A stretch of 64,000 nt of DNA from Dehalococcoidales bacterium (GTDB lineage: Bacteria; Chloroflexota; Dehalococcoidia; Dehalococcoidales; RBG-16-60-22). The first letter of the stretch is position 1. Each line of letters starts with the position of its first letter. Location: positions 3,608 to 67,607 of the forward strand of contig DAOUDY010000028.1 in the NCBI GenBank assembly GCA_034430755.1, given 5' to 3'. Made by a program: the position numbers and the translations under genes. The notes beneath the pieces are model-generated. The model was not told the origin of the DNA. It ran no database searches and was given only the letters and a program-made list of their open reading frames with translations. Below are positions 16,735-25,047 of the stretch, one piece after another.

Positions 16735-17128
16735 AACTTGGCACCTCCTTCGTTATCATTCTAATAAGCCTGTGACGGATTTAGAAACTTCTTAACCTAC
16801 AAGCAGTTAACAATCTGACGGCAGTGAAGTCAGGTTCAGGCGTTTATAGAATAGTTATACCATAATCCGGCCTGAGATAACGAGCGAAGCAGTATAAGCA
16901 TTTTCGGCTAGTGAAATTAAGCATAACAGCGGAAGGCAGGCCAGAAAATACGGCGATAAGCTGGGAGCAGACAGTACCGGCACCAGACTGAGAGAGATTA
17001 TCGCAGGTAAGGGCGAGGCAGGTATTGCCTCGGTGGAATATAACTGGTACATTTATGCTGGTAGCAGTTTTGAAATCTTAAAACGGATAAAAACCGTCTG
17101 ACAAATAAATAGTGGTGAATAGGCGCAT

Positions 17129-17986
17129 ATGCTCGCTCCTATAGGCTTACTGGGGATTAGCCGGCTATCGGTTGATTTTCAAGTCCGGGTCATCGACATC
17201 GCATGGCAGGATACCATCCGCCCCCTGTGTCTGATAGTCTATATTCTCACCATACTGGGGCTGGTGCTGAACTATGTTTTCACACAGAAATTCAAACCAG
17301 AGAAACACGGGGTTCAGGAAGCAGAACAAAGACAAGAGGTAGAGCGATACCGCAAGCCGACGCGGATTCTGCACTGGAGCCTTGCCGCTTTATTTGTCGT
17401 TTTATTCGGGAGCGGACTGGTAATCTTTTGCTTCCCCGGCTCGGCCATCTCAGGCAGCAGCTGGCTGCATAGCATGCACCGGGTGGCGGGTATAGTTTTT
17501 ATCATTTTGCCGCTGCTGTATTTGTTAATCAACCCGAAGGCAGCCTGGCGGGGCATAAAGCTGGCTTTCGTGTGGGGTGCGGACGACCTGGAATGGGTTA
17601 AGGCGGCACCAGAATACTATTACCTTCACGATGAACGGGCAATGCCGCCTCAAGGCTTTTTAAACACCCACCAGAAAGCCTGGTGGCTGGCGGCGATTGT
17701 TCTCGGGCCGGTCCTTGCCGTTACCGGCGTGCTTCTGTGGGCGTTTGAGGCAAGCGCAGCGACGCAATTCTATCAATTAATGCTCTTCTGCCACAGCGTA
17801 TCGTTCATCATCATCGGCAACATGTTCCTGATGCACATTTACCTGGCGGTTATTCACCCCGTCACCCGTCCCTGGAAAACCGGACCCTGGGGCGCTATGA
17901 CCAGGGGCAAAGTTCCCATGGAATACGCCCGGTCACACCATGGCAAATGGATAGAGGGGCTGCAGAAAGCCGGAGAGGACCGGTAA
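17129..17986 (+). CDS. di-heme cytochrome b, formate-dehydrogenase gamma (FdnI)-like, orphan
   Basis: 285 aa. RILHWSLAALFVVLFGSGL, HSMHRVAG, and HSVSFIIIGNMFLMHIYLAVIHP supply candidate heme-ligand His residues. C-terminal GKVPMEYARSHHGKW is typical of the family. No catalytic partner is adjacent. Confidence 0.7.
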   Translation: MLAPIGLLGISRLSVDFQVRVIDIAWQDTIRPLCLIVYILTILGLVLNYVFTQKFKPEKHGVQEAEQRQEVERYRKPTRILHWSLAALFVVLFGSGLVIFCFPGSAISGSSWLHSMHRVAGIVFIILPLLYLLINPKAAWRGIKLAFVWGADDLEWVKAAPEYYYLHDERAMPPQGFLNTHQKAWWLAAIVLGPVLAVTGVLLWAFEASAATQFYQLMLFCHSVSFIIIGNMFLMHIYLAVIHPVTRPWKTGPWGAMTRGKVPMEYARSHHGKWIEGLQKAGEDR

Positions 17987-18055: not shown

Positions 18056-18292
18056 TCAACGTTTGTTTTTCCGGTGGTGCTGATCGGGTGGTTTCGGATA
18101 GAAAATCTGGGGATGAAACAGCATGTAGAGCAGTGAGCCGAAGCAGGGAATAAATAGTATGGTCAATGCCCAGGGTGGCTTTCGTTTCCCGAATACCCTA
18201 TCCCGGCTGGCTAAATCATGTAGCATGAAAGCCGCCAGAATCCAGTGGACTACGCCAAAGAGAATTATCCTTAAAATCCATTCGGAGTCCAT
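18056..18292 (-). CDS. small membrane protein with PLD-nuclease N-terminal (PLDc_N) type domain
   Basis: 78 aa, 2 TM. PPWALTILFIPCFGSLLYMLF pattern. Confidence 0.65.
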   Translation of the reverse strand: MDSEWILRIILFGVVHWILAAFMLHDLASRDRVFGKRKPPWALTILFIPCFGSLLYMLFHPQIFYPKPPDQHHRKNKR

Positions 18293-18395
18293 ATATTCGC
18301 TTCCAGTGGCCCTGCCATTTCAGTTAAGTAATTATATATGGTACTCGTTTTGTGTGGCAAAAGTTGTGGCAGAGGGAAGGGGCGATGGTGCGAGT

Positions 18396-19142
18396 TTAGT
18401 CCCCTGAACCTTCCTGCGCTGAGATATTCCTGAAGATGGAAATCTGGCACGTCGTGCCGTCAGAGTCAATATATGGCGCAGCCACGATTTCATACTGTGT
18501 GCCGTCCGGAAAGGGGCATTTCCAGCGACCAATTACGCCTTTTTCGATAACATCGAGCAGTTTACAGTCCCTGCCACATGGGGCATCAAAGTGGTACAGG
18601 TGCTGATAGCAGGGCAGGCCGGTGCCATCGCCGAAGCTATTGGTCATATACGAGTTCATGAATCTGATTTTATAGTCGGGACCGGTAATGAGAATGCCGT
18701 CAGCCATGCCGTCAACGATTTTCAGCAGCCGGTCTCTTCCCGCAGTTAGCATTGTTTCCAGCTGTCGGCACCGCTCCGTCCTGTTGCGGCACATGCCGAT
18801 CAGTGTGCCAATGGCACCGGCGAAAACCGTGAACAGTACGATTCTGATGAGAGGGTCAGGAAACGGGGAAATGAAAAAGGCGCGTGGCAGGAAGATTATG
18901 AAGGAAACCAGCGTTATGATAATAGCGCCTTTTACTCTGGCAACGTGCGCGGCGTAGATAATCGGTACCAGAAACAGAAGGCGATGAATATCGTGGATAC
19001 TGTAGAAAAATTTAAGACGCATGGCGTCCCAGGTTGCCCAGTCCACCAGTTCGCCGAAATAGTAGAATGCGGTGCAGAAGATGAGCATTACGGGCAGGGT
19101 GAACATCTTTAAACCGGGACCACCGTTCGTTTCTTTCACCAT
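18396..19142 (-). CDS. membrane protein: polytopic N-terminal sensor module + Cys-rich PAS-like domain, no output domain
   Basis: 248 aa. The TM region aligns with the N-terminus of the kinase at 21265..22902 (LPRAFFIS vs LPRAVFIS etc.). C-terminal half is PAS-like (LLKIVDGMADGILITGPDYKIRFMN...) with PCY..x..PCGRDC..x..KCP. Confidence 0.6.
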   Translation of the reverse strand: MVKETNGGPGLKMFTLPVMLIFCTAFYYFGELVDWATWDAMRLKFFYSIHDIHRLLFLVPIIYAAHVARVKGAIIITLVSFIIFLPRAFFISPFPDPLIRIVLFTVFAGAIGTLIGMCRNRTERCRQLETMLTAGRDRLLKIVDGMADGILITGPDYKIRFMNSYMTNSFGDGTGLPCYQHLYHFDAPCGRDCKLLDVIEKGVIGRWKCPFPDGTQYEIVAAPYIDSDGTTCQISIFRNISAQEGSGD

Positions 19143-19225: not shown

Positions 19226-19381
19226 TTACGGTTTGCCTGCCTTCAAATTGGCTACCTGATTACCCTGGGCTTTTGCCAGCAGGATTTCGATGCTGTCCAG
19301 TATCAGGCAACAGGCAAATGCCAGCGGGACCATGAAGATAGGTGTCAGCAATATCAGGATGAAAATCAACGGCACTTCCAT
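19226..19381 (-). CDS. unannotated micro-protein sORF1, single TM (51 aa)
   Basis: MEVPLIFILILLTPIFMVPLAFACCLILDSIEILLAKAQGNQVANLKAGKP. GGAGGTG SD 6 nt before ATG. Most divergent member of the five-gene paralog array. Confidence 0.55.
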   Translation of the reverse strand: MEVPLIFILILLTPIFMVPLAFACCLILDSIEILLAKAQGNQVANLKAGKP

Positions 19382-19472
19382 TTCCCTCACCTCCCTTAAT
19401 CAGCGTATCTCTTCACATGGTTTGCCGATTAACAGTTTTTTACTCTTCCTGCCACGGCAGGGATTGGCCACC

Positions 19473-19649
19473 TCAGCAGTTCTTCGGGGGCTCAAGCGCT
19501 ATGGCTAATTCAAACTTCCGCGCCGCTCGCTCCCGGCGTTTTCTTTTGATGGCTCGATAGATTCCGCCGAGGTTCACAAACCAGACAAAGATGCCAGCAA
19601 AGGTAATAAGCGGCACCGCTAGAATGATTGCCATGATATGCCATTCCAT
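19473..19649 (-). CDS. unannotated micro-protein sORF2, single TM (58 aa)
   Basis: MEWHIMAIILAVPLITFAGIFVWFVNLGGIYRAIKRKRRERAARKFELAIALEPPKNC. GGAGAG 6 nt before ATG. Close paralog of sORF5. Confidence 0.65.
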   Translation of the reverse strand: MEWHIMAIILAVPLITFAGIFVWFVNLGGIYRAIKRKRRERAARKFELAIALEPPKNC

Positions 19650-19696
19650 AGTCGGCTCTCCGTTTTACCTCTGGTCTAAGACCATCGATGGTATTT

Positions 19697-19861
19697 TCAG
19701 GTTGTGCTGGTGGTCTGGTGGCTCTGAGCCGGTGCTTTCTTGCGCTTTCTATCGCGAATGCAACAGAATAAACCCTTGATCGCGCAACACCAGATAAGCA
19801 ATGGCCATACGATGACTATAGGTACAATGAGCACTAGAAGTATGATAAACCCCCACTCCAT
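19697..19861 (-). CDS. unannotated micro-protein sORF3, single TM (54 aa)
   Basis: MEWGFIILLVLIVPIVIVWPLLIWCCAIKGLFCCIRDRKRKKAPAQSHQTTSTT. AAGGAGGTG 5 nt before ATG. Close paralog of sORF4. Confidence 0.7.
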   Translation of the reverse strand: MEWGFIILLVLIVPIVIVWPLLIWCCAIKGLFCCIRDRKRKKAPAQSHQTTSTT

Positions 19862-19914
19862 TTTCACACCTCCTTACCATTGCTGTAGGCTCTGCATTAT
19901 TCTTAAATTCTTCC

Positions 19915-20067
19915 TCACGGCCTTTTAGGCTCAGTAGTTGCTTTCTGGTATATCCGCTCGCGAACCAGGTCGTACAGGATTTTGATGGCTCCGGCCCAGA
20001 TGAGAGCCGGCCACAGGATTACGAAAGGCACGACGAGCGCCAGAAGTATAATGAATCCCGGCTCCAT
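19915..20067 (-). CDS. unannotated micro-protein sORF4, single TM (50 aa)
   Basis: MEPGFIILLALVVPFVILWPALIWAGAIKILYDLVRERIYQKATTEPKRP. Purine-rich GAAGGGGGGGAAG before ATG. The 65-aa track ORF 19931..20128 is the wrong frame over the same DNA. Confidence 0.65.
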   Translation of the reverse strand: MEPGFIILLALVVPFVILWPALIWAGAIKILYDLVRERIYQKATTEPKRP

Positions 20068-20164
20068 TTTTCTTCCCCCCCTTCAAAGTGTAGGCTTTGT
20101 TTTTCACCGGCAATACTCTATACCGCATCTCGTAACAATGACTCCTTGTTTATTTTAATCCCCT

Positions 20165-20323
20165 TTATTCCATCTCAACCCTCTTTTTAAGGGCAACCCT
20201 CTTTCTCCGGGCGTTTTTCAGAGCGGTGTAGATACCACCGATGTTGGTGTACCAAACGAATGCCGCTGGAAAGAGGATTATTGGTATGGCGATGATCAGT
20301 GCTAAGATGAATTCCCAGTGCAT
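20165..20323 (-). CDS. unannotated micro-protein sORF5, single TM (52 aa)
   Basis: MHWEFILALIIAIPIILFPAAFVWYTNIGGIYTALKNARRKRVALKKRVEME. GGAGGT 9 nt before ATG. First gene of the array. Confidence 0.65.
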   Translation of the reverse strand: MHWEFILALIIAIPIILFPAAFVWYTNIGGIYTALKNARRKRVALKKRVEME

Positions 20324-20540
20324 CTTCCTGTTACCTCCACTATAACCTTATCACTGCGCTGTCAAAGATAGCTTCCGCTGCGATGCCTATTTCTGAGTTC
20401 CAGAAAGGCGTATTCTCTGCTGTCTTGAATTACGTATTTAAACTATTAATAACCGTGACTTGATAGGCAATTATACTTAGTGATGGCCGCGCCCGATTAA
20501 TGGCCATCTGTTGATATTGAGCGGTTGGAGAAAAAAAGGT

Positions 20541-21230
20541 ATGATAAGGGTGAGGAGCAGTGATTTGAAGAGCATCAGAGTCCTGATTGCTGATGACCAT
20601 GCTGTAGTGCGGGAGGGTACCCGTCAGATTCTGGAGCAGGAATCGGACATAAATGTTGTTGCCGAAGCTGCCGATGGGGAAGAAGCGGTAAGGCTGGCAG
20701 CCGATTCCGATCCTGATGTCATCATCATGGACATATCCATGCCCAAGCTGGACGGCGTCGAGGCGACCAGGCAGATAAAGGAGCTTCATCCCAATATCGC
20801 CATCCTCATTCTTACCGCCTATGATGATGACCAGTTTGTCTTTAATTTAATTGAGGCCGGAGCTGCCGGTTACCTGCTCAAGAGCGTGCGCGGCCGGGAG
20901 CTGGTGGAGGCAATACGGGCGGTAAACGCCGGGGAATCGGTGCTGCATCCGGCAATCGCCCGGAAGGTGCTCAATCGGTTCGCCCCGGCGGCCGGTAAAG
21001 AGTCAAAGCAAAGGGTTCTGGAAGTGCTCAGTGACCGCGAGGTGGAGGTATTGAGGCTGGCGGCAAGAGGACTGAGCAACCAGGATATTGCCGCTGAGCT
21101 CTGTTTGAGTCTGCGCACGGTTCAGGCCCATCTGGGACATATCTTCAACAAGCTGCAGGTCAGCTCGCGGACGGAGGCCGTGGTGCGCGCTCTCAAAGAG
21201 AGCTGGATCACCCTCGATGATATCGCCTGA
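20541..21230 (+). CDS. NarL/LuxR-family response regulator
   Basis: REC (IRVLIADDH...IMDISMPKLDG) + LuxR HTH (LSDREVEVLRLAARGLSNQDIAAELCLSLRTVQAHL). The track ORF starts at 20511. ATG 20541 or TTG 20565 (GGTGAGGAG SD) are more plausible starts. Confidence 0.9.
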   Translation: MIRVRSSDLKSIRVLIADDHAVVREGTRQILEQESDINVVAEAADGEEAVRLAADSDPDVIIMDISMPKLDGVEATRQIKELHPNIAILILTAYDDDQFVFNLIEAGAAGYLLKSVRGRELVEAIRAVNAGESVLHPAIARKVLNRFAPAAGKESKQRVLEVLSDREVEVLRLAARGLSNQDIAAELCLSLRTVQAHLGHIFNKLQVSSRTEAVVRALKESWITLDDIA

Positions 21231-21264: not shown

Positions 21265-22902
21265 GTGACCGGATATTCATTCACGCGGTGGCTGATAGGG
21301 GCGCTCCGCAGCCCCGTTCTCTGGTTCATTCTGATACTGCTCAGCCTGATTACCATACCGTATTATGCCGAAGCCCTCGCCTTCCCTTCGTTCATCATCG
21401 AGTTGATTTCCAAGCTTGACCTGGACCGGCACGCCTTCGAGCGGATACTCTATCTGGCACCGATTGTCTGGGCGGGGTTTATCTTTGGCTGGAGGGGGTC
21501 TGTCGTTATATCCGTGATGGCCCTGGTGCTCATGTTGCCCCGGGCAGTCTTCATTTCAGAACACCCCCGGGATGCACTTTTTGAGACCGGCGCCGTCTTC
21601 ATCGTGGGCAATGTGCTGGCCATCAGTTTTGCCTCGCTGCGCCGGGAGAGGGAGTATCGCACGCAGCTTGAGGTCGCCAGGCACGACCTCGAGGCCAATA
21701 TTGAAATTATCCGGGGAAATGAAAGACAGCTGGCCGTGCTGAACCAGATTGCCAGCACCGTATCCCAGTCCCTGGATTTGAATCAGGTACTGGACAGCGC
21801 CATCGGCAATGTGGTTGACGTCATGCAGGTTGATATCGCCTGGATATATCTGCTGGATGAGGAATTTGGAGAGCTGGTGATGAGCGTCCACCGGGGCATT
21901 CTGGAGGAGGTGGTAAAAGGGGTGGATAGATTAAAAGTCGGCGAAGGTTTCAATGGTCGGGTGGCACAGACGGGGGAGCCATTGTTTGTGTACGATGCTT
22001 CTCAGGATTCGAGGCTTACTCGCGAGGTGGTCAGCAAGCATAACATACAGTCACTGCTCATTGTCCCGCTGCGCTACCGGGCCAAAGTAAATGGCACGCT
22101 CTGCGTTGCCATGTATCGCCAGCGGGAATTTCATCAGGAAGAGATAGACCTGTTAACCGCCATTGGCAATCAGATTGGTGTGGCCGTGGAGAATGCCCGA
22201 CTTTACCAGCAGCAGCAGGGCGTCGCCGAGCAGATGCGCGGCATGCAGGAGAACCTGCGTTTTTACCTGCAGCAGGTGACCAAAGCGCAGGAGGAGGAAA
22301 GAAAGCGTATTTCCCGCGAACTGCATGACGATACGGTACAGGACCTGGTGGTCCTTTCCCGTCAGCTTGACACGCTGGCCTCCGGCAGCGAGCTTTCAAA
22401 GGAAAACCGTCGCAATCTGGAGGAACTCTGGCAAAAGACAAACGATATCATCAAGGAAGTGCGTCGCTTGAGCCAGGACCTGCGACCGGCGGCACTGGAC
22501 CGTCTGGGGCTGTTGCCGGCTCTGGAGCGGCTGGCTTCGGACACCGCCGATTACTCTGGAATAGAGACCGCGGTTAAAGTAAGTGGCAAGGAAAGGCGTC
22601 TCAACGAAGAGGTGGAACTCGTCCTGTTCCGTATCACGCAGGAGGCGCTGCGTAACGTATGGCGGCATGCGCAGGCAACCAGGGTTGAGATTGCCGTTGC
22701 TTTTGAAAAGAACAGGGTTAAAGTGACCGTCAGCGATAACGGGAAGGGCTTTGAAATTCCCGATAAACTCGGGACGCTGGCCCGTGATGGCAAGCTCGGC
22801 CTGGCCGGTATGCAGGAGCGGGCTCAACTCATCGGAGGCGAACTCACCGTAAACTCAGCGGCGGGCGAAGGTTCTACCGTAACCGTGGAGGTGCCGGTTT
22901 AG
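21265..22902 (+). CDS. sensor histidine kinase: polytopic N-terminal module + GAF + HisKA_3 + HATPase (NarX/DegS type)
   Basis: 545 aa. GAF region ([11 protein letters not shown]...[15 protein letters not shown]), H-box [19 protein letters not shown]...[12 protein letters not shown] start in track. Confidence 0.9.
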
Positions 22903-23336
22903 TCTGACTTTTCTGCCAAGGAAATGGAAACGCTGTCCTGCCTTACGTTTTTCCGTGTCCAGTCGACGATTTCAGCAATCGGGGTTCCCGGCAGGAACAC
23001 CTGTTTGATGCCGGCCTTCTTCAATCTGGGGATGTCTTCCTCTGGAATGATGCCGCCGCCAATGACGGTGATGTCGCCGGCACCGGCGGCTCTCAACTGC
23101 CTGACTACTTCGGGGAACAGGTAAAGATGCGCCCCGGAAAGGCAGCTCAAGCCAATCAGGTCTACATCTTCCTGAATTGCGGCGCTTACAATCTGCTCCG
23201 GGGTCTGGTGCACCCCGGTATAGATGACTTCAAATCCGGCGTCGCGGAGGCCGCGGGCGATAACCCTGGCGCCACGGTCATGGCCATCCAGGCCAGGCTT
23301 GGCAATTAGCACCCGCAATTTCCGGTCGCGTTCCAT
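22899..23336 (-). CDS. B12-binding small subunit of a split acyl-CoA mutase (IcmB-like size)
   Basis: 145 aa. [18 protein letters not shown] contains the DxHxxG cobalamin-binding motif. Its stop codon overlaps the stop codon of the convergent kinase gene. Confidence 0.85.
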
Positions 23337-23370
23337 TGCTTCTCCTGCTTATGTCCCGGTAATTCCAAAG

Positions 23371-25047
23371 CTAGAAGAACCCGGGGTCGCGGTACTCTCC
23401 AAAGGCCTCGCGATAAACATCGCATATCTCCTGCTCGGTGGCATAGGCCCTGACCGCCTCAATGACGCAGGGCATGACGTTTTTATCGCTCCGGCAGGCG
23501 GCACGGAGGTCGTCGAGTGTTTTTAATACTGTCCGGTTGTCCCGGGCCCTCTTCACTTCTCTTAATCTTTTGGCCTGCCCTGCCTCCACCTTTTCGTCAA
23601 TCTTCAATATCTCAATGGGGGCCTCTTCTTCAGCACGGTATTTGTTCACTCCCACCACCACCTTTTCCTGGTTATCCACCTGCTGCTTGAACCTGTAGGC
23701 GGCATTGGCGATCTCCCGCTGCGGAAAGCCCCGGTCGATTGCGGCGAGCATTCCGCCCATGTCGTCAATCCCTTTGATGTATTTCCAGGCTTCATCTTCT
23801 ATCTGGCTGGTCAGGGCCTCGATGAAATAAGAACCGGCCAGGGGGTCAATGGTGTTGACCACGCCGGTCTCTTCGGCCAGGAGCTGCTGGGTGCGGAGGG
23901 CAATGGTGGCGGCGAATTCTGTGGGCAGGGCATACTCCTCGTCGAAGGAATTGGTATGGAGGGACTGGGTTCCGCCCAGCACTGCCGCCAGCGCCTCGGT
24001 GGCAGTGCGGACGATGTTATTGTACGGCTGCTGGTGCGTCAGCGAGCAGCCGGCCGTCTGCGTGTGGAACCTGAGCCACCAGGAGCGGGGGTTCTTCGCC
24101 TGGAACCGGTCCCTCATGATTTTGGCCCACATCCGCCGCGCCGCCCGGAACTTGGCGATTTCCTCGAAGAAGTCCATGTGAGAGTCAAAGAAGAAAGACA
24201 GCCTCGGGGCGAAGGCGTCAACGTCCAGTTTTTTACGCGCTATGACATCCTGAACGTAGGCGATGCCATCGGCCAGGGTGAAGGCCAGCTCCTGTACGGC
24301 GGTGGCGCCTGCCTCGCGGATATGGTAGCCGCTGATGCTGATGGTGTTCCAGCGCGGCACATGGTGAGTGCCGAACTCGATGGTGTCACTGATAAGCCTT
24401 ATCGACGGTTCCGGGGGGCACATAAAAGTTTTCTGGGCAATGAACTCTTTGAGCATGTCATTTTGAATGGTGCCGCCCACCCGGTCCCAGCTCACTCCCT
24501 GCCTCTCGGCGGCCACGAGGTACATTGCCCAGAGCACGCTGGCGGGTGGATTGATGGTCATGGAGGTGGTCACTTTGTCCAGGGGAATATTTCTGGTCAG
24601 GACTTCAAAGTCGGCCAGAGTGTCGATAGCCACCCCGCACTTGCCGACCTCGGCTCTGGCCTTTGGTGAATCGGAATCGTAGCCCATAAGGGTGGGGAAG
24701 TCAAAGGCGGTGCTCAGGCCCGTCTCGCCCTCTTTTAGAAGCTGGTGCCACCGCCGGTTGGTATCCTCGGCGGTGCCGAGGCCGGAGAACATGCGGAAAG
24801 TCCAGACCCTGCCCCGGTAGCCGGTGGCCTGGCAGCCGCGGGTGAACGGGAAAAAGCCGGGGTAGCCGATTTCACGGTCAAAGTCCAGGTCGCGAATATC
24901 CTCCGGGGTGTATATCGGGTTTACCAGCAGGTCGGAAATGGTGGATAATCGCTTCTTTGCCAGCAGGTCAGGGGCGGTTCTGGTAACCTCGGCCTCCCAT
25001 TTTTTTATCCCCTGGCGAGCATCGGCCAGCGTCTTCTCATCGAACAT
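23371..25047 (-). CDS. acyl-CoA mutase large (substrate-binding) subunit, isobutyryl-CoA-mutase-like residue signature
   Basis: 558 aa. Aligns by eye along its length with methylmalonyl-CoA mutase alpha ([12 protein letters not shown]..., [36 protein letters not shown]). It has WTFRMFSG (Phe at the MCM Tyr89 position) and KEFIAQKT (Gln at the MCM Arg207 position). Confidence 0.9.

Follow-up and report, generated by a model that had tools for sequence, protein, structure and literature searches.

A kinase-less membrane PAS protein and the divergently encoded histidine kinase carry homologous input modules within a conserved Dehalococcoidia cassette

What can a sensor protein do whose chain stops where its sensor domain ends? 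The question is raised by a 248-residue protein of a Dehalococcoidales bacterium, encoded in a stretch of 64,000 nucleotides (the window; contig DAOUDY010000028.1 of assembly GCA_034430755.1, positions 3,608 to 67,607) close to a histidine kinase and its response regulator. A sequence-only reading of this locus had proposed that the small protein and the kinase carry the same membrane sensor module, which in the kinase leads into catalytic domains and in the small protein into a cysteine-rich PAS-like domain, after which the protein ends. Here we show that the two modules are homologous, that the small protein sits in a gene cassette with conserved order and promoter elements, and that its relatives range from forms fused to a kinase to forms reduced to the membrane part. 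Its domain content marks the 248-residue protein as a predicted signalling input unit without an output domain, and it may serve the adjacent kinase as a co-sensor.

18396..19142, minus strand: kinase-less membrane sensor of 248 residues, with a transmembrane (TM) module, a juxtamembrane helix and a four-cysteine PAS domain (open reading frame as earlier described)
18738..19118, minus strand: four-helix membrane module and cytoplasmic juxtamembrane helix, residues 9-135 of the 248-residue protein, homologous to the N-terminus of the kinase
18420..18704, minus strand: cytoplasmic PAS domain, residues 147-241, with C178, C189, C193 and C232 invariant (C-x10-C-x3-C-x38-C)
21265..22902, plus strand: histidine kinase of 545 residues, with the paralogous TM module (residues 1-142, 21265-21690), GAF (170-310), HisKA_3 (345-411) and HATPase_c (451-544)
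20511..21230, plus strand: NarL-type response regulator, Response_reg and GerE (the gene caller sets a later start, giving 221 residues)

One membrane module in two neighbouring proteins

The similarity between the two membrane modules is far above that of random polytopic proteins. BLASTP with compositional adjustment aligned residues 50-164 of the small protein with residues 56-161 of the kinase at 28% identity (E=2e-11). Their Smith-Waterman score of 111 compares with 31.9 +/- 5.7 in 2000 shuffles (maximum 57, z=13.9), and 114 unrelated open reading frames with at least four predicted TM segments, taken from the same loci, reached maxima of only 49-56. When alignments of the two subfamilies were compared with hhalign the probability was 99.2% (E=8.6e-20, 115 columns), and because the match runs over residues 16-131 against 22-138 the homology also covers the first TM helix (TM1). 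MAFFT likewise carries the alignment to TM1 ('FYYFGEL' in the small protein, 'IPYYAEAL' in the kinase) and on into the cytoplasmic helix ('RNRTERCRQLE' in the small protein). The pairwise and profile comparisons that had been suggested as a check on the earlier proposal thus bear out its central claim of a homologous sensor module in both proteins. The peptide strings on which that proposal was based occupy residues 53-129 in the small protein and 59-136 in the kinase; the note had them aligning without gaps, and the similarity is real, but the strings are 77 and 78 residues long and one gap of a single residue (4 residues in BLAST) is needed after 'ISPFP/ISEHPR'.

The small protein had further been taken for a truncated paralogue of its neighbour. 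The paralogy of the modules stands, but the idea of a truncated copy does not: the module matches those of HisKA kinases, PAS-GGDEF and PAS-HD-GYP proteins with phmmer E-values of 1e-26 to 1e-45, against only 1e-4 to 1e-9 for the subfamily of the neighbouring HisKA_3 kinase. Since it is closer to the kinase-fused long forms described below and to GGDEF proteins, the 248-residue protein is a distinct paralogue.

A profile of the module, searched against 1.84 billion proteins (cut-off E<=1e-3), recovered 564 representatives only, of 87-1395 residues, and the module is N-terminal in every one. Among 142 representatives scanned for downstream domains we found PAS (~54), HATPase_c (43), HisKA (26), HisKA_3 (23), GAF (14), Trans_reg_C (8) and GGDEF (6), and PAS-GGDEF and PAS-HD-GYP (HD_5) proteins with the module were also present in the fetched loci. 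Judged by these architectures the module occurs solely as the N-terminal input of signalling proteins, and it has no model in Pfam. Wherever the source names of module proteins indicate taxonomy, they point to Chloroflexota. Both subfamilies, that of the PAS protein and that of the kinase, keep the signature R-x5-P ... P-R-x4-S ... D, to which the PAS-protein subfamily adds H50-D51-x-H53; H50, D51, R54, P86, R87 and S92 are invariant in its module. From the positive-inside rule and the cytoplasmic position of the PAS domain, the conserved residues would occupy the outer ends of TM2 and TM3.

The closest described counterparts of the module are MASE1 and DUF4118, which are also N-terminal polytopic inputs of kinases and cyclases, and the matches to them are weak. 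MASE1 (PF05231) scores 21.1 bits in the kinase (E=1.9e-4, gathering threshold 29.8) over just profile positions 194-287, has no match in the 248-residue protein, and matches weakly (E<1e-3) in 8 of the 142 representatives; DUF4118 (PF13493) reaches 11.6 bits in the 248-residue protein (E=0.25, gathering threshold 28.4). MASE1 is moreover about 300 residues long, whereas the present module has four helices in about 125 residues, a signature of its own and no solved structural relative: a model of the TM part alone (predicted local distance difference test, pLDDT, 82.7; predicted template modelling score 0.72) found no relative in the PDB by Foldseek (best E 2.7). One metagenomic protein of 324 residues (P0200) joins the module to a C-terminal Trans_reg_C DNA-binding domain, the domain counted in 8 of the 142 representatives, and by this arrangement would be a membrane-bound one-component regulator.

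Beyond the module, the AlphaFold2 model of the small protein (pLDDT 70.7) has helices at residues 9-36, 46-56, 58-90 and 96-146 and, after these, an alpha/beta domain with strands at 149-153, 158-162, 205-210, 216-225 and 231-239. Foldseek matched the model to short LOV proteins, FixL, DosP and the CitA PASc domain (E down to 3e-6, probability 1.0), and the family profile matches the PAS-CYT domain of WalK (4mn5, E=2.7e-4), its closest solved sequence relative. The single sequence gave nothing above threshold in NCBIfam and Pfam scans (PAS_9 12.8 bits against 27) and noise only in a PDB search, and a search with the PAS domain alone returned three fragments only; long-form homologues pass the Pfam model PAS_4 (30.1 against 23.1 bits). 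The model and the profile match indicate that the C-terminal domain is a true PAS fold. With the open reading frame, this fold and the cysteines in agreement, the proposed architecture of a membrane part, a cysteine-rich PAS-like domain and then a stop is borne out. The cysteine cluster noted in the sequence-only reading is real, the four residues being invariant in 63 of 63 sequences, kinase-fused forms included, and position 209 is occupied by cysteine or tyrosine. In the model the four invariant cysteines would map to the beginning of E-alpha, to the loop that precedes F-alpha and to I-beta, which are the parts of other PAS domains that touch the cofactor.

Two known types of site were considered for these cysteines and rejected. 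WalK PAS-CYT binds zinc through His271, Asp274, His364 and Glu368, and in a HMMER alignment the corresponding positions here are G145, D148, R238 and a variable residue. The four-cysteine form of the NreB site has a further X2C. In NreBC and NreABC systems the PAS domain of NreB carries the motif CX2CX11C (PMC13478379). The arrangement C178-x10-C189-x3-C193-x38-C232 is not of this kind, and the NreB-type iron-sulphur (Fe-S) site also differs in belonging to a protein with a fused kinase.

Among 5.8 billion proteins searched, 517 are homologues of the 248-residue protein. The best 120 of these are 58-100% identical to it and 228-278 residues long, and the source names are 'PAS domain-containing' or 'hypothetical', from Dehalococcoidales or Chloroflexota. 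The protein is no isolated truncation but a member of a tightly conserved family of about 240 residues that is, as far as seen, confined to Dehalococcoidia/Chloroflexota. Mean column identity is 72% in an alignment of 26 members, which together with the invariance of the four cysteines argues for strong purifying selection.

A conserved cassette and its promoters

Conservation extends to the surroundings of the gene. We compared 80 loci (numbered with the prefix L) from species-representative genomes, all of them metagenome-assembled genomes of Dehalococcoidia, and mapped the components with phmmer; 56 are short-form loci, with a protein like that of the window, and the counts below use evaluable loci. 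The order that recurs is a TM-module kinase and a NarL-type regulator on one strand and, on the opposite strand, one to five micro-protein genes, optional cargo, the PAS-protein gene and a PLDc_N gene. The immediate neighbours in the window are those that had been claimed:

19226..20323, minus strand: five tandem single-TM micro-protein genes, the operon head (20165-20323, 19915-20067, 19697-19867, 19473-19649 and 19226-19390), called as genes in the same contig
18056..18292, minus strand: PLDc_N micro-protein of 78 residues (PF13396, 26.8 bits, E=5e-6, cut-off 23.3)
17129..17986, plus strand: cytochrome b of the di-haem type (Ni_hydr_CYTB/FdhG-like; Pfam E=5e-21; TIGR01583 89 bits, below its cut-off)

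PLDc_N adjoins the PAS-protein gene downstream in 51 of 53 short-form loci, and at least one micro-protein gene lies upstream on the same strand in 43 of 51. The divergent regulator and TM-HisKA_3 kinase stand at the operon head in 30 of 45 evaluable species-level loci; in two more a TM-HisKA kinase takes the place of the HisKA_3 kinase, and in another three a TM-module kinase is found elsewhere within 10 kb, giving 35 of 45. The co-occurrence of the two genes, which had been named as a check on their relationship, therefore holds across related genomes. The most faithful partner of the 248-residue protein is, however, the PLDc_N micro-protein and not the kinase. The micro-proteins form a family with 336 unannotated homologues and gave nothing above threshold in NCBIfam and Pfam scans. 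No account of the cassette was found in the literature on Dehalococcoidia, NrfD and two-component systems, and the sole literature match for PLDc_N was the name of a Leishmania plasmid.

Two groups of loci depart from the short form in opposite directions. In six species (L049, L050, L054, L059, L066 and L082) long forms of 488-534 residues have the TM module and the four-cysteine PAS domain fused to HisKA and HATPase_c, with an OmpR-type regulator next and often also a PLDc_N gene (3 of 6 within 2 kb). Because it is fused to a kinase core in these species, the TM and PAS unit is a working kinase input. Ten other loci (L074-L080, L083, L084 and L086) have, at the position of the PAS protein, TM-only forms of 121-164 residues (90 in L084, where the contig end cuts the open reading frame), with PLDc_N still next (8 of 9 loci) and the divergent kinase usually opposite. 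That they keep this position in the cassette implies that the module acts within the membrane. Truncated pseudogenes were considered as an explanation of the TM-only genes and ruled out, the spacer of roughly 60-100 nucleotides to PLDc_N having no room for a PAS domain. The distribution of forms and kinases is complementary: a TM-module kinase is nearby in 35 of 45 loci with short or TM-only forms, against one of five with long forms (Fisher p=0.018), which mostly stand without an adjacent TM-HisKA_3 kinase (present in 1/5).

Cargo between the micro-protein genes and the PAS-protein gene is absent from about 30 of some 50 cassettes, the window included. Elsewhere it consists of Fer4_11 and NrfD genes, of a molybdopterin subunit with Fer4_11 and NrfD, or of an Hdr/MvhD/NiFe-hydrogenase/HycI operon.

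The promoters of the window are as follows.

20330..20473, minus strand: conserved promoter/operator of the micro-protein/PAS operon (from MAFFT of 33 operon heads), with box 1 TAATTGCCTA at 20464-20473, palindrome-like TAGTTTAAATACGTA at 20431-20445, box 3 AAATAGGCATCGCAGCGGAAG at 20372-20392, a -10-like element GTGATAAGGT at 20345-20354 and a Shine-Dalgarno sequence at 20330-20338
16915..16962, plus strand: box-3-type promoter upstream of the cytochrome b gene, AATTAAGCATAACAGCGGAAG ... GCGATAAGCT, with box 3 at 16915-16935
18331..18360, minus strand: sigma-70-like promoter TTGCCA-18-TATAAT before the PLDc_N gene, in the spacer after the stop of the PAS protein (11/12 consensus match)

The 248-residue protein is encoded by the last gene of the operon that the micro-protein genes head, behind the conserved promoter and divergent from regulator and kinase. 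In 33 loci (33 species; operon heads among L013-L084) the 150 nucleotides that precede the first micro-protein gene can be aligned, with a consensus order of box 1 TAATTACCTA, palindrome TAGGTATAAATACCTA, box 3 GAAATAGGTATCACGGCGGAAGC, -10-like element GTGATAAGCT and Shine-Dalgarno sequence. The loci contain 62 copies of box 3, of which 50 stand directly before micro-protein genes, three before the PAS gene and two each before TM-only and cytochrome b genes. The cassette promoter contains TACCTA/TAGGTA boxes, whose half-site TACCTAT fits the NarL heptamer TACYYMT; by this resemblance the adjacent NarL-type regulator may bind the boxes.

The same element recurs at the other end of the locus. 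In the 64-kb window the box-3-type element has two matches, a number reached in 0 of 100 shuffles, and the second, box 3 plus GATAAGCT, lies about 195 nucleotides upstream of the cytochrome b gene and would leave a leader of roughly 170 nucleotides. An orthologous cytochrome b gene has the same promoter element in L073. These matches make it probable that the cytochrome b gene belongs to one regulon with the micro-protein/PAS operon. The sequence-only reading had suspected a single membrane-redox locus at 17.1-22.9 kb, and this view gains support from the conserved cassette and from the promoter element common to the operon and the cytochrome b gene. PLDc_N, on the other hand, is probably transcribed on its own, because a near-consensus sigma-70 promoter stands in the spacer before it and most of the 58 PAS-PLDc_N spacers compared (about 50 by eye) share an aligned hexamer of the TATAAT type. 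In the window this promoter overlaps a box-1-like 'TAATTACTTA'.

A proposed co-sensor for the adjacent kinase and the rival explanations

Several known systems offer a precedent for an output-less partner of a kinase. The window pair has the composition of NarL/HisKA_3 two-component systems, with HisKA_3 and HATPase_c in the kinase and Response_reg and GerE in the regulator. In UhpABC the MASE1-HisKA_3 kinase UhpB is controlled by UhpC, a polytopic membrane co-sensor without output, and the core of the window kinase matches the UhpB model (E=2e-38). The two systems are alike in combining a NarL-type system with a separate, output-less polytopic membrane protein, which in UhpABC is the co-sensor; unlike the 248-residue protein, which is a paralogue of the kinase's own module, UhpC is a transporter paralogue that lacks a PAS domain, and no micro-proteins accompany it. 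Kinases are also modulated by membrane or small proteins such as YycH/YycI (WalK), LiaF (LiaS), MgrB and SafA (PhoQ) and MzrA (EnvZ), of which the LiaF type is co-regulated with its system. WalK is the nearest of these, as its metal-binding PAS-CYT is the closest solved relative of the PAS domain and its accessory membrane proteins, whose genes accompany those of the system, work through contacts in the membrane. The 248-residue protein is likewise encoded with a two-component system, in a divergent arrangement and behind a conserved, cassette-specific promoter, which suggests co-regulation. To our knowledge no accessory in this group combines paralogy to the kinase input module with a PAS sensor of its own.

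Short LOV and stand-alone PAS proteins, the best Foldseek matches, have in common with it the PAS core, the helices on either side and the lack of an effector domain, but are soluble flavoproteins, whereas the 248-residue protein is membrane-anchored and cysteine-rich; the LOV flavin-binding motif NCRFLQ is absent from its sequence. NreABC of Staphylococcus carnosus and NreBC of Bacillus licheniformis resemble the present system in the HisKA_3 kinase, the NarL-type regulator and the PAS domain with conserved cysteines, and also in the division of sensing between two polypeptides (the GAF co-sensor NreA in Staphylococcus) and the control of anaerobic respiratory genes (PMC13478379), both of which are proposed for the present system. 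In NreB, however, the PAS domain is cytoplasmic and fused to the kinase, whereas here it belongs to a membrane-anchored, kinase-less protein and GAF is on the kinase. The 248-residue protein resembles NreABC, UhpABC and WalK-YycH/I in logic, and it is most likely an accessory sensor of two-component systems, of a kind not yet described.

According to the model that we favour, the two-component system would turn on the micro-protein/PAS operon, and the 248-residue protein would then make contact with the kinase inside the membrane by way of its paralogous module and similar juxtamembrane helix, with the separately promoted PLDc_N micro-protein and the other micro-proteins taking part. There it would report the state of its four-cysteine PAS site (an Fe-S cluster, a metal or thiol redox) to the kinase, and so tune the expression of respiratory modules: the formate-dehydrogenase-like molybdoenzyme, Fer4_11/NrfD, the Hdr-Mvh hydrogenase and cytochrome b. 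We consider the chances about even that the protein serves the adjacent kinase in this way, as an inducible, kinase-less co-sensor in the membrane or as a feedback modulator. Within this model we infer physical association with the kinase, a cofactor at the PAS site, the identity of the regulator at the boxes and whether the effect is positive or negative. Several observations weigh against it. The module is just 26-28% identical to that of the kinase and nearer to other subfamilies, so the ability to form heteromers is not a given; 8-10 of 45 loci lack the kinase within 10 kb, and as a neighbour it is less constant (30/45) than PLDc_N (51/53); cassette kinases usually have GAF or PAS sensors of their own; the cysteine motif is unlike any characterised Fe-S or zinc PAS site compared; and binding of the boxes by the regulator is an inference from their likeness to the NarL heptamer.

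The constancy of PLDc_N invites a different account, in which it and the 248-residue protein form a self-contained membrane unit with another target, either a kinase encoded elsewhere or a membrane complex, and are linked to the two-component system through transcription only. PLDc_N indeed also follows the long forms and the TM-only forms and has a conserved promoter of its own. Yet both proteins lack an output domain, the operon has a cassette-specific promoter beside the regulator gene, and the long forms, which bring their own kinase, stand without an adjacent TM-HisKA_3 kinase; we therefore regard this account as unlikely, if a serious competitor. It is improbable that the protein is instead an assembly or maturation factor, or a redox-sensing chaperone, for upstream membrane or Fe-S respiratory complexes with no part in signalling. 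Such a role would suit the four invariant cysteines and the several genomes in which the PAS-protein gene comes straight after genes for hydrogenase maturation (HycI, HypC) or after Fer4_11/NrfD genes, but many cassettes, that of the window among them, are devoid of enzyme cargo, the cargo enzymes are unrelated in type, the membrane module is found on signalling proteins only, and in sister lineages the identical TM-Cys-PAS unit is the input of a histidine kinase. Finally, the existence of long forms with HisKA-HATPase and the sub-threshold Pfam matches that the window protein alone yields might suggest a functionless remnant of a long-form kinase or a chance similarity between hydrophobic sequences. 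With more than 500 homologues of constant length and 72% mean column identity, many invariant polar residues, conserved gene order and promoters, and alignment statistics (z=13.9, hhalign E=8.6e-20) in which unrelated polytopic open reading frames score at most 56 against 111, both are effectively excluded on comparative grounds.

Returning to the co-sensor model, we tentatively extend it to a portable, so far undescribed membrane signalling cassette of Dehalococcoidia. Its kinase, headed by a new MASE-like module of four helices, would be controlled inside the membrane by three kinds of unannotated partner, namely a kinase-less paralogous redox sensor with a four-cysteine (Fe-S or metal) PAS domain, a PLDc_N micro-protein with its own promoter and one to five single-TM micro-proteins, and respiratory operons (a selenocysteine-containing, formate-dehydrogenase-like molybdoenzyme, NrfD/Fer4_11 or Hdr-Mvh) would be interchangeable cargo between the cassette ends. 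This wider proposal is possible, although we hold it to be doubtful as a whole.

Dehalococcoidia abound in sediments and aquifers; they are anaerobes, for the most part uncultured, and the control of their respiration is poorly understood. The locus defines four recurrent, unannotated things: a membrane input module, a four-cysteine PAS subfamily, a micro-protein family and a promoter design. The module heads kinases, cyclases, HD-GYP proteins and a DNA-binding protein, and the cassette brackets operons for hydrogenases and molybdoenzymes. Should the kinase-less paralogue prove to modulate the kinase, this would be a clean natural split sensor, its TM-PAS unit occurring fused, free or as the membrane part only, and the series would be useful for learning how the membrane modules of kinases talk to each other. 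Regulons could then also be predicted in metagenomes from the box-3 promoter.

Variations among the loci

A number of further observations concern individual components. The PLDc_N gene is uncalled in the GCA_964439695.1 contig (L006 10851-11087, corresponding to window positions 18056-18292), and an orthologue of about 80 residues is called in other assemblies. At the operon head of L031, L053, L058, L065 and L076 the divergent gene encodes a TM-module HisKA kinase of 390-397 residues, which replaces the NarL-type pair, and a receiver-containing protein of ~775-805 residues lies near it.

In seven loci (L015, L016, L048, L051, L063, L064 and L076) the box-3 promoter is followed by 'GGAGGTAAG' and then by a leader of ~100 nucleotides. 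The leader sequence 'CTTACCTCC' can pair back to 'GGAGGTAAG', ahead of a second Shine-Dalgarno sequence, and this pairing could be a leader hairpin or an attenuator.

Among the cargo genes, the molybdopterin catalytic subunit is split by an in-frame TGA in the context 'CARL-U-HSS', into 187 and 813 residues (L061 4727-7753; also L048 4418-7450). From this context, the TGA is probably the selenocysteine codon of a formate-dehydrogenase-like enzyme. An operon for B12-binding, methylmalonyl-CoA mutase and 2-oxoacid:ferredoxin oxidoreductase proteins adjoins the kinase in the window (22899-25047), and the same operon adjoins the PAS-protein end of the Hdr-Mvh hydrogenase cassette in L011. One chromosomal neighbourhood therefore hosts cassettes with different cargo.

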